Source: Amoebidium appalachense
Lineage: Eukaryota; Protista; Ichthyosporea
Assembly: GCA_963693365.1 (NCBI GenBank)
Contig: CAVNZM010000014.1
Location: 6,882,001-6,946,000, forward strand
Reading direction: 5' to 3'
Length of the DNA stretch: 64,000 nt
In this document: piece by piece, positions 30,601 through 35,135 of the stretch
How the letters are laid out: every line of letters begins with the position of its first letter
Position numbering within the stretch: position 1 is the first letter of the stretch
Notes under the pieces: generated by a model
Told to the model about the DNA's origin: nothing
What the model saw: only the letters and a program-made list of their open reading frames with translations
The model's database searches: none
Position numbers and translations under genes: made by a program

Positions 30601-33600
30601 CCCCCCCCCCCCTCCCACCCTCCCTCTCCCTTTCCCTCTCCACCCTCTCTTCCCCCCTCCCTCCCTCCCCCTCCCCTCACTCCCCCTTTCCCTCTCCCCT
30701 TCCCTCCCCATCTCCCCCCCCCCCCCCCCTCTCTCTCTCTCCCCCCTCTCTCTCTCTCTCTCTCTCTCTCTCTCTCTCTCTCTCTCTCTCTCTCTCTCTC
30801 TCTCTCTCTCTCTCTCTCTCTCTCTCTCTCGCTCTCTTCCCCCTCCCTCCACCCCCCCCCCCCCCTTCCCCCCTTTCCGGAAAGTGTGTGCCTATTTGTG
30901 CCCTCGCGATGTACTTTCAGCACGTGATCTCTGTGTGGCGGATGTTGCACACGGATCAGCAAAAGAGAATAAGGCTAATTCTTGTGTGATTTTCAAAATC
31001 TACGGGGTGGCATGTCTACCAGATTGTCCTCCCCTTCTCCGCCCCCTTCCCCCCCCCTCCCCCTCCCCCCCTGCTCTCCATGACACATATACACAAGCAC
31101 GCACACACACAATATGTTCACCGCTCTCGTGCGAACACGCACACAAAAAAAGAAGAAAAACATTACGTGCAATCACACGTACACGCAGATACGTGTACAC
31201 ACACACACACACACACACACACACACACACACACACACACACACACACACACACACAGACACACACTAACCCACCCCTCCCCCTCCCCCTCCTCCCTTTG
31301 CCCTCCCCCCCCCCCCCCCCCCCTCCTCCCCCCCCCTCCCCTCCCCCCCCCCCCCCCCCACCACCACACACATGCACACGCACACGCACACATGCACACG
31401 TACTTACGTACACACGCACACACACACACACACACACAGCCGTCCATCACTGGCTGGCAGCACCCCGATGGAGACCTCAAGATAGCCGGTATTGAGGTCT
31501 ATCTCTCCGATGCTGTTCTTGTAAGAGACTCTTACGAGCTCGATCTGTGGAGGTACACCCCCCCCCCCCACCCCCCCACCCCCCTCCCCCACCCCATTCT
31601 CCCCTGCCTCTATCCATTCACCCTCTTTCAATCCCCTTCCCCCCTTCCCCTACCTCCTCTACCTCCATGCTCCTCTGCGGCAGTCTCCTATCTCACACCC
31701 CCCTTTGCATGTTCTGCTCCCCCCGCCCCCTCCCCCCCTGCAAGCTGGTAATAACAATCAAATAGTTAATGTCGAAGTGGATGTACACGTGCCTGTAGGT
31801 GTGCTGCTGTGTAAGTGTGAACACATGCATAAGTGCTCCTTATGTAGCCGGTGCAAAAAAAAGTCGTTTTTTTCTCCCCAGGTTTCAGTGCAGTTGCTAC
31901 CGCTTGGCCCCACCGTCATCTCTCTAAACCCTTTACTCACCCAATCACCCAAAACTCAAGTCCCCTTTGTCAAGTATTCTTGGCTTGGTATTTTGGTGAG
32001 TATACCGCCAAATACATTAACGCACATCCCCATGTGTGCTCATATATACTGCACGGATATGCATGTAAGCAAACCTTACATGTATTTAGACACCTAACAG
32101 CATGCGGATACCGGGGTAAGCGTGCATGAACAAATACTTTCAACCCACTCACTAACTCAGACGCACTTTTTATGTGTACAAGGCATTTACATGCACACGC
32201 AGCCGAACGTGCCTGCACTAGCGCACGCACACACACATACACACACACACACACACACACACATACACACACACACGTGCGCGCGCAGGATCCTCACGCT
32301 GTATGCACTGCCGAGCGAGAGTGAGGCGGTGAGTGGGTTTGTGCCCAGCCTGCTGACCAAGGACCACAAGAAGAAGCACTCGGAGGTCCAGGAGAAGCTG
32401 GCCATCGAGGTAACGTGCGGTAACGTGAAAGTAACGTTGGGGTGTGGGTGTTTGTGAGGGTAGGCCGGGGCGGGGGGGGAGGGAGGGGGGGGGGGGGGGG
32501 GGGGGGGGGGGGGGGGGGGGGGGGTAACACTAGGTAAAGCAAATGGTGTTTGTGTTGGTGGTGGTGGTGGTGGCGGTGGTTGGAGTGAGAAGGGCGGGGG
32601 AGAAGGGGGGGGGGGGGGGGGGGGGGGGGTAAGCAGTGCAGGTGAACTAGGTGTAATGTTGCATGGAAATGGAGTGAGTTTTGAGGGAGATGGGTGCCGC
32701 TTTTTCTAACACATACACACGCACACACACACACCACACACACACACACACACACACACACACACACACACACACACACACACACACACACACACACACA
32801 CACACACAGATTGGGGCGCTCAATGAACGCTACCTCAGGCGCTTCTGGAGTGATCTGCGTGAGTATACACACCTGGGCAAGCCCAAAAAGGTACCTAACC
32901 CTCCCTCTCTCTCTCTCTCTCTCCCTCTCCCCCCCCCCCCCCCCCCCCCCTTTGCCCCCTTCTTACCGCCGGTGCCTCCTTCTAAGGCATGCCCCTCCCT
33001 TTCCCCCTCCCCTCCTCCCCCCCCCCTCAAAAAAAAAAAAAAAAAAAACTCCCCCTTTTTCATCCGTCCAGCACACACAACACATAGTTGCACACGTGCA
33101 AGCTCGTGAACACACACATAAGCTCGTGAACACACACATACGCACACAACAACATTTGGGGAAGAGATGGGAGGCATGTGAAGAACAGACTATGTGCACA
33201 ACACATCCCCATATTGGTGTTCTAGTCAACTGTGACCTACACATCTAAAAACCACATCAACAAGGACCTATATAACATTTTCCCCCCTATCCTCCCCTCT
33301 TCTCTCTCCTGTCAAAACATACACACTCACACCACCACACACACACACACACACACACACACACACACACACACACACACACACACACACACACACACAC
33401 ACACACACACACACACACACACACACACACACACACACACACACACACACACACACACACACACAGTCCGACCCATCCACCCCCCCCAGCACATCTACCT
33501 CTGGCCCCTGGTCAGACCCCCGCATTCAGCGGCAGCCAATCAACATCGACGATTTAGTCGACATGAACATCTTTGCAGCCAGCGGGGTTGCTGACGGCAC

Positions 33601-35135
33601 ATTTGAAAATGCACCAATCGAAAACACCACACCGGCACAAGGGACTGCACGTGGGGGGTTGGGGAGGCAGGAGTCACGTGACAGTGTGGGGAGCCAATCA
33701 TCTGCGAGGAATGAGGAGGAGAGGTGGGGGGGGACGAGTGACGGTGGGGGAAGGAGAGACTCTGCCAGTGGGTGGGCGGAGGATTATGATTACGGTGCTG
33801 ATCTGGAGAGGGAGAGGGCAGCAAGGGGAAGGAGGGGAGAGAGGGGGGAGAGGTGGGGTGAGTGGAGGGGGAAGGACGGGTTGGGGTGATGAGTGGAGTG
33901 GTGGTGGGTGGGGAGGTGGGGGGTGGGGGCGGGGGCGGGTGGGGAAACAGTAGTGGTGGTGGATGGGGGGTGGAGTTGACGGGGCCCAAGGCGGAGCCCA
34001 AAGCGCAAAACAAGGAGGAGGGGGTCGAGTCGAGAAAGAAAGCATCGGCATGGTACCAGGTGCGCATACACACACTCTTACGACCTCACCCGTTCAACAC
34101 ACACACACACACACACACACACACACACACACACACACACACACACACACACGTACACACACACACACAGAGACACAATATCTTCACCCCTACCCCCCAA
34201 TAATGATATGAAATTCAAGCAGGTAGTGTGTAATGAATAAATGAATATCAAAACTGCACCTTAGAAAGGGGGGAAAGCTGCACATATATCATGCCGAGAC
34301 CACCACGGCCCATGAGCCAACCACATGAGTGGCTCTCCCCAAATACTTGCACGTGGCAAGTGTCCACACCCATGCATGTGGGTTGGGTGTGCTGGGGCCT
34401 TGAAGTGTGCCATATATTTGTCTGATGTGGTGTGTGGCCTACCAAGCATGTGCACGCGGGTGTGGGGTGTGCCAGTTCTCGGGTGTATTGGGCATTGTTG
34501 CTCCGTGTAGGTTGGAATCATAGCACACTTTAGCTCCGTGCCTGCTTGCTTTGCAGGTACACACTCGCAGTGCAGAAATTAAGGTCAATCCACTTTGCCA
34601 TTCCAAACCTGAATATGATACACCAGGGAGCAAACACTTACACCGAAACACCCCCAGTCCTCCTTCCCCCCCCCCCCCCCCCCCCTCCGGGCCCAGGTCA
34701 CACACACAGAGAGAGAGACAAACACACGCCAACACATGCAGACACACACTCGAAAACACACCATCTCGTACATGTCACACACACACACACACACACACAC
34801 ACACACACACACACACACACACACACACACAGGTGTGCTACGATCGTGCCTCCGAGTACCACTGGCGTTCCTTCCCGTGGGTCGTCTCTTCGATTCTCTG
34901 CGACATCAAAAAAGATGCCCGAAGAGCAAATTCTCGCCCCAACCCTGCCCCTGCCACCTCCTATTCAAACCCACCTCCACGGCATGCAAACACAAACCCC
35001 CCTTCGCATCATGTAAATTCCACTGCACCCCCACTGCGGGGTAGAGGGAGAGGGGGTGTAGGTGGTCAGGCCCAGAGGGCGAGGGGTGGGCGGGGAGGCA
35101 GTGTAAGTGGTCGGGGTGGCTATAATTACCACTAG
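12664..35135 (+). CDS. Cellular RNA-dependent RNA polymerase (RNAi RdRP, DLDGD type, RDR1/2/6-like), 21 exons, about 1,400 aa
   Basis: GT-AG exons: 12664-12802, 14607-14809, 15892-16094, 17745-17862, 18382-18602, 19588-19905, 20649-20864, 21121-21330, 22516-22799, 23643-23771, 24822-24993, 25724-25904, 26528-26696, 27437-27515, 28918-29088, 30243-30416, 31440-31552, 32289-32409, 32810-32890, 33467-34059, 34833-35135. Motifs: [106 protein letters not shown] (catalytic DLDGD 26656-26670), AVDFAKTG, YPDFMEK, KASAWY, SFPW. Apparent frameshifts fall inside G-runs of exons 3 and 20 and are likely sequencing errors. Confidence 0.96.
21465..21750. repeat. ~20-bp minisatellite (AGTACTGTGTGCACATGGG-like), about 14 copies, RdRP intron 8
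   Basis: Tandem units visible directly in the sequence. Confidence 0.85.
23149..23665 (+). repeat. Tandem array of branch point (TACTAAC) + AG acceptor + copied start of RdRP exon 10
   Basis: About 13 units of 30-45 bp, about 9 with an exact TACTAAC. At least 5 contain CTCGAGATCAT, a near-identical copy of the real exon start CTTGAGATCAT. Confidence 0.85.
26797..27330. repeat. Degenerate minisatellite (GTAGTGAATGTAGTGCGG-like), RdRP intron 13
   Basis: Tandem units of 9-21 bp visible directly. Confidence 0.8.
29170..30110. repeat. Compound minisatellite GTTGCTTGTATTGG + (GT)n, RdRP intron 15
   Basis: The motif recurs many times, separated by GT tracts of variable length. Confidence 0.75.

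Follow-up and report, generated by a model that had tools for sequence, protein, structure and literature searches.

A Tryptophan-Bearing Insert in an Ichthyosporean RNA-Dependent RNA Polymerase as a Candidate Argonaute Hook

Known Argonaute hooks and the Amoebidium polymerase

Tas3 of Schizosaccharomyces pombe RITS is a familiar comparison for Argonaute binding through tryptophan–glycine and glycine–tryptophan (WG/GW) motifs. Here we consider such motifs in a gene for a cellular RNA-dependent RNA polymerase (RdRP; 12664..35135, plus strand) of the ichthyosporean Amoebidium appalachense, which lies in a 64-kb stretch of DNA that was analyzed as a whole (contig CAVNZM010000014.1, positions 6,882,001 to 6,946,000; hereafter the window) and whose exon 22 encodes a long polar insert with reiterated WG, GW, and GWG motifs. 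The closest described arrangement is that of Arabidopsis, where RDR6 reaches AGO1 through SGS3/SDE5 and where GW/WG dipeptides in an intrinsically disordered region (IDR) of SGS3 are proposed to link the pockets of Argonaute with the RdRP-dependent amplification of small interfering RNA (siRNA) (10.1101/2025.10.18.683247). According to the accessible part of that preprint, glycine-flanked tryptophans in disordered regions enter pockets of the Argonaute PIWI domain, and both the GW motifs of SGS3 and the pockets of AGO1 are needed for RDR6 amplification; the study was unable to prove direct binding and describes the specific AGO1, SGS3, SDE5, and RDR6 interactions as previously undescribed. A second set of comparisons consists of the C-terminal domain of NRPE1 (Pol V), SPT5L, SDE3, and GW182/TNRC6, RNA-silencing proteins with reiterated WG/GW/GWG motifs in G/S/N-rich regions, platforms that diverge fast and vary in copy number between orthologs (PMC4476159 and PMC2910046, in their accessible text); the number of hooks in NRPE1 platforms varies widely (PMC4476159). 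Recruitment of an RdRP by Argonaute, or its co-purification with Argonaute, is mentioned in the accessible text of two further papers with no such motif (PMC6396948, PMC8546589).

The Amoebidium insert resembles the WG/GW platforms in its reiterated motifs, its composition, its place on an RNA-silencing protein, and its fast divergence with variable copy number. However, NRPE1, SPT5L, SDE3, and GW182/TNRC6 are DNA-dependent polymerases, helicases, or scaffolds whose platforms are mostly terminal and often longer, whereas the RdRPs of Amoebidium and of its relative Ichthyophonus hoferi carry two to five GWG in an internal loop of a single-subunit enzyme. The Arabidopsis hook belongs to an adaptor protein, SGS3, whereas that of Amoebidium would be part of the polymerase itself. 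Plant RdRPs of the RDR1/2/6 type (RDR2 structures 7W84, 7EU0, and 7ROZ), which we linked to the window protein through the homolog P0003, have in common with it the PF05183 core, the DLDGD motif, and the C-terminal ASAWY and SFPW segments, but in them the loop that leads to ASAWY has only about a dozen residues and lacks GW repeats. As far as titles and the starts of abstracts in the open literature go, no RdRP has been described with a GW hook of its own, and subscription papers and supplements, such as lists of predicted GW proteins, may bear on the point; the term RDR is absent from the main text of the WG/GW prediction paper (PMC2910046).

Length, reading frame, and splicing of the insert

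The insert is set apart from other RdRPs by its length. Between the RFWSDL helix, which exon 21 (32810..32890, plus strand) encodes together with the first insert residues according to homolog alignments, and the conserved KASAWY motif, the window RdRP has 203 residues, compared with a median of 13.5 and a maximum of 62 in the 106 RdRPs in which this loop was measurable, out of 153 other RdRPs of at least 800 residues. The original prediction of an insertion of about 190 residues before KASAWY is borne out by this comparison. A long insert at the same site was found in addition only in the RdRP of I. hoferi (P0004) within the measured set; an earlier alignment of 66 homologs gave the same picture of loop length, though P0004 was misplaced in it. 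The composition of the loop is also unusual, with six glycine-adjacent tryptophans within 90 residues compared with at most two in every other RdRP that we compared. Tryptophan makes up 4.0% of the window insert (8/202) and 2.6% of the I. hoferi insert (7/274), versus 1.0% (18/1801) of the polar stretches of the other 153 RdRPs (binomial P of 0.001 and 0.02, respectively). GWG occurs in four of 154 RdRPs of at least 800 residues, and two copies within one short stretch are found only in I. hoferi. One of the four, an unrelated Closterium RdRP, carries GGGGWG in glycine-rich stretches, so the tripeptide can arise incidentally.

Exon 22 (33467..34059, plus strand) extends from a CAG acceptor that follows CA repeats to a GT donor, and its share of the polar, hydrophobe-poor insert, about 190 residues, is followed by KASAWYQ. 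The coordinates first given for this exon hold, although our gene model, with 23 exons, numbers it 22 and not 20. As assembled it has 593 nucleotides, which is not a multiple of three, and the entry frame differs from that of KASAWYQ: the entry frame holds RWGG and SGWA; the second holds TGWGD, EWSG, and GGWGG; and the third holds GGWGN, GGWGV, and KASAWYQ. Contigs labeled X1–X4 and X6–X8, of which X3 and X6 come from the same sample and X1 is RNA only by our guess, place two errors in G-runs. An X3 contig of 456 nucleotides (33480–33913) is identical to the window except for two additional G letters (+GG) behind 33842, which are also present in X6, where the contig continues for 29 letters past the site, and in a 52-nucleotide X4 contig of depth 4.5. 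An X2 contig contradicts this repair, as it lacks the +GG, one letter at 33726, and another at an unlisted place; however, the X1, X3, and X4 contigs keep the window sequence at 33726 and the ortholog-matching ERERAARG lies downstream in the entry frame, and for these reasons we take the X2 deletion to be an error. The X3 contig contradicts the literal window frame, which reads ERWGEWRG and then meets stops.

The second error lies in the 17 bases of 33914–33930, a stretch that no trustworthy contig bridges. All four one-step repairs nevertheless yield an open exon of 198–199 residues with eight or nine tryptophans before KASAWY; six or seven of the tryptophans are adjacent to glycine, and GWG is present four or five times, in contrast to two in I. 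hoferi. An X1 contig matches the window exactly over 33480–33816 and 33931–34062 and continues into exon 23 (its loose end corresponds to 34836–34865 of the window), which indicates that exon 22 is spliced to exon 23, and X8 has the same junction, although only 27 letters beyond it. The WG/GW motifs that had been noted across ambiguous G-run frames, six in all, therefore come together in one frame after correction, and the X1, X3, X4, and X6 contigs agree with a frame that retains them, as the original prediction had asked. Two other read features in this region were set aside. A one-base deletion at 33918 in X7 was assigned to another locus based on loose ends of 255 letters on both sides, and an X4 joint between 33839 and 33906 was rejected as noncanonical with only 30 letters on one side. 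A 31-base G-rich stretch nearly identical to 33907–33938 is present with different flanks at another locus under the same organism label, in both X1 and X7.

Along the corrected exon (all coordinates plus strand), a DPRI mini-motif (33515..33526) is followed by RWGG and SGWA (33725..33775; tryptophan codons 33725–33727 and 33773–33775), the frame of which is backed by X1, X3, and X4. A basic stretch, ERERAARG in Amoebidium and ERKRAERG in I. hoferi, leads into RG/RGG repeats and contains the +GG site (33806..33857). The next tryptophan motifs (33876..33913; codons 33882, 33894, and 33909) are placed in frame by the X3 contig and are separated by the G-runs of the second correction (33914..33930), in which another GWG (TGG at 33924) is present or absent according to the run that is in error, from a stretch with tryptophan codons 33940 and 33964 (33931..33966) whose frame is fixed by the spliced X1 contig. 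The last element is a motif conserved with I. hoferi, GGWGV[ED]LTGP (33958..33987). A match to the prion octapeptide repeat (PF03991) was dismissed, as its 17 bits fall short of the cut-off of 32 and exon 22 encodes no histidine.

Conservation and possible roles of the insert

A scan with exon 11 as query, of which the best 150 of 159 matches were considered, identifies P0004 (EukProt EP00124_Ichthyophonus_hoferi_P005768) as the closest relative among the matches listed, at 812 bits compared with 434 for the next; its record gives the protein no functional name. The two RdRPs are 54% identical over 802 aligned residues and form a clade in a quick tree of 46 rows (SH-aLRT 100), with 1.4 changes per site between them. 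The I. hoferi insert occupies the same site and has 274–275 residues but is Ser/Asn-rich; the P0004 model ends at the KASAWYQ boundary without the last exon, hence the RGG-rich tail of the window protein is outside the comparison. The two inserts have in common, in the same order, DPRI, a basic ER-x-RA-x-RG stretch, TGWG, and GGWGV[ED]LTGP. This last motif, GGWGVDLTGP in I. hoferi, is identical at nine of ten positions, compared with at most 7/10 in 500 shuffles and 6/10 in the rest of the insert, and it precedes KASAWYQ by 17 residues in both species. Overall, identity before the motif is low (42 of 143 aligned positions versus 423 of 759 in the core), and because TGWG and GGWGV[ED]LTGP are kept in an otherwise poorly conserved insert, the alignment argues that selection acts on at least one of the tryptophan motifs. 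Conservation of the tryptophans, which the original prediction had proposed to check in orthologs, is partial: I. hoferi keeps two GWG motifs but not RWGG, SGWA, or the tryptophans of the glycine-rich run.

Additional orthologs were sought in several ways. With the insert as query, none of 61 candidates was orthologous among sequences of 68–219 residues, and a head-domain profile gave 78 matches among sequences of 840–2395 residues, a range that excludes transcript fragments, of which only P0004 was close. A motif scan of metagenomes returned none, and a peptide-pattern search confirmed none of 24 candidates. Structural comparison contributed little: an ESM Atlas comparison of the first 125 residues was uninformative (best 0.79), and a single-sequence fold of the C-terminal 479 residues of the I. 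hoferi protein was too poor for use (mean pLDDT 38).

Our leading reading, to which we give slightly less than an even chance, is that the loop of about 200 residues hooks Argonaute directly through its Gly-Trp-Gly motifs. The insert has a hydrophobe fraction of 0.11 and is positioned in a variable loop, and we presume that it would be disordered and exposed at the surface. Tryptophan side chains would then enter the tryptophan pockets of the PIWI domain and would either anchor the polymerase to Argonaute that is loaded with small RNA and bound to a target RNA, or allow its products to be handed to empty Argonaute, with no adaptor of the SGS3 type. The conserved distal GWG would be the likely core of the hook, the additional copies, probably derived from G-run expansion, may add avidity, and the RG/RGG repeats may contribute to RNA binding or to partitioning into condensates. 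Since hook number varies between NRPE1 orthologs, the difference between two GWG in Ichthyophonus and four or five in Amoebidium is compatible with this proposal, and AGO was detected in most of the ichthyosporeans examined in the accessible part of one survey (10.1101/076190). We tentatively extend the proposal to the Ichthyophonus lineage of ichthyosporeans, which may have fused an Argonaute hook into the RdRP to give a one-protein amplifier without adaptors of the SGS3 or RITS type. The recruitment of RdRPs by Argonaute is an open step in the amplification of RNA interference; if the proposal is correct, a polymerase that carries the hook itself would provide a two-component system for reconstitution and a third way of using the same Argonaute pockets. 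It would also mean that unicellular organisms closely related to animals use GW-pocket coupling to amplify siRNA and not for GW182-type repression. The conserved peptide of ten residues offers a cheap test, and if the hook fails it would still mark an uncharacterized conserved interaction site on an RdRP.

Several observations weigh against a hook. The number of tryptophans in exon 22 does not exceed that in dinucleotide-shuffled DNA (P of 0.36–0.42, from a null that is partly circular), and tryptophan next to glycine gives P of 0.08–0.23. We re-implemented the dos score for Argonaute hooks (PMC2910046; threshold 6.99) without its ics filter (cut-off below 2.14), and the scores of 67.9 and 25.1 in the window and 19.6 in I. 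hoferi, compared with 74.5 for SDE3, all pass. Scoring with a hook predictor, as the original prediction had suggested, thus flags the insert, but the score is unspecific: 46 other six-frame stretches of the window reach at least 30 and three reach at least 60, noncoding G-runs are flagged as well, and 31 of 154 RdRPs exceed 6.99. The authors of the score themselves warn of glycine-rich false positives, as far as the accessible text goes (PMC2910046), and given how many other window stretches and RdRPs it flags, composition cannot decide the question. The comparison covers two genera, and I. hoferi has just two GWG and no glycine-rich run. A conserved GGWSGP is also present in the N-terminal part of both proteins. 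The +GG repair draws mainly on one sample, with the X2 contig in disagreement.

The strongest rival, which we consider doubtful, is that GGWGV[ED]LTGP packs on the C-terminal head of the RdRP itself or binds some other protein instead of Argonaute (Dicer, a helicase, or an adaptor), with the other GW copies being products of G-run slippage. It owes this rank to the conservation of V, L, T, G, and P and of the distance to KASAWY, which matches that of the tryptophan and fits a folded or other-partner role: the 17-residue spacing is fixed, and the stretch aligns without a gap at 17 of 27 identities. The chance-level number of the extra tryptophans and the GGGGWG of the Closterium RdRP point the same way. 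However, both species have another GWG (TGWG) upstream of the motif, both inserts are enriched in tryptophan, and the RdRP head evidently folds without such a loop, as the loop is shorter in all 106 other RdRPs that were measured. We regard as unlikely that the loop and the RGG-rich tail form a sticker-and-spacer region whose tryptophans and arginines bring the enzyme, along with Argonaute, into condensates of small-RNA factors while engaging no specific pocket. The scatter of tryptophans over both inserts, many of them not adjacent to glycine in I. hoferi, is consistent with this, as are the RG/RGG repeats in the insert and tail. Aromatic residues in IDRs drive condensation, and the SGS3 preprint cautions, in its accessible part, that tryptophans in IDRs can act in this way (10.1101/2025.10.18.683247). 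Stickers, though, do not require a ten-residue motif kept over 1.4 changes per site.

Two other explanations concern the origin of the tryptophan codons and the extent of the exon. A neutral, tolerated low-complexity loop with tryptophans as by-products of G-rich slippage would accord with the unexceeded shuffle null, with the G-runs and GT repeats that are everywhere in the window, and with the X4 sequence, in which four of the five codons that differ from the window within the first 128 codons of exon 22 alter the residue. We consider it improbable given the ordered motifs common to the I. hoferi insert, which is itself not glycine-rich. Removal of part of the Gly/Trp stretch as a micro-intron (e.g., 33858–33915, donor GTGAGT) would restore the frame and eliminate three tryptophans; in the part that X1 leaves uncovered, four GT..AG pairs would bring the frame back, of which one has a consensus donor, and no spliced contig crosses 33817–33930. 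This is very improbable, as the candidates are 22–58 nucleotides long with GAG or AAG acceptors in a G-rich context, whereas all 22 introns of the gene are at least 256 nucleotides long with CAG or TAG, and G-run errors are also found in exon 3. The excision of the G-rich stretch, which had been named as a refutation of the hook, is therefore unlikely, and GGWGN and GGWGV would remain even if it took place. The direct Argonaute hook stays our leading, if tentative, reading.

Gene structure and other features of the window

In this ichthyosporean the gene for the cellular RdRP is spliced. Its 23-exon model is supported by PF05183 matches and the alignment to P0004, to which exons 2–22 align, and exons 8–23 join in frame once exon 22 is repaired. 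PF05183 matches are found on exons 9, 10, 11, 14, 15, 17, and 18, all of which exceed the cut-off of 23.8 bits singly with the exception of exon 18 (20.2 bits). Exon 15 (26528..26696, plus strand; E value 2.7e-17) encodes the catalytic DLDGD motif (GSDLDGDLY), so that a PF05183 domain above cut-off and a catalytic DxDGD motif, two marks of the cellular RdRP class, are both present. Exon 23 (34833..35135, plus strand), supported by the exon model and the splice in the X1 contig, encodes the SFPW helix, a proline-rich linker, and the RGG-rich tail, a possible RNA-binding or arginine-methylation region. The introns comprise 21 of the GT-AG type and one of the GC-AG type and range from 256 to 1804 nucleotides; the apparent GC donor belongs to intron 5 (17451–17744, plus strand). 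Exon 3 has two further apparent G-run frame breaks (16014–16045, plus strand), each run apparently one base too long in the assembly as judged by the I. hoferi alignment alone. The end of intron 11 (23180–23660, plus strand) consists of degenerate tandem repeats with several copies of the acceptor and the first bases of exon 12 (gagctcgagatcatcacctac), that is, duplicated exon starts.

The window as a whole is intron-rich eukaryotic DNA with CA repeats, G/C runs, and GT repeats throughout. On the minus strand, 59050–61014 is an intronless frame of 654 residues with an XPG_I nuclease domain (E value 5e-13) and a Cys/His cluster (CVC...CSH) that we take to resemble a SWIM finger; it is possibly a mobile or viral-type gene. 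Frames for multi-pass membrane proteins are present at 44807–48427 and 154–1671 (both plus strand). The helical end exons of the former presumably resemble an RGS domain, as in proteins of the seven-transmembrane RGS type, and a Pfam search of this gene gave no match. Broken frames at 50178–52383 (minus strand) with RNase H-like (VYTDGS) and CPRC motifs have no Pfam match, and we take them to resemble a decayed retroelement. Two pairs of near-identical local duplications are also found, at 53699–54271 and 56842–57330 on the minus strand and at 38322–38720 and 38760–39135 on the plus strand.

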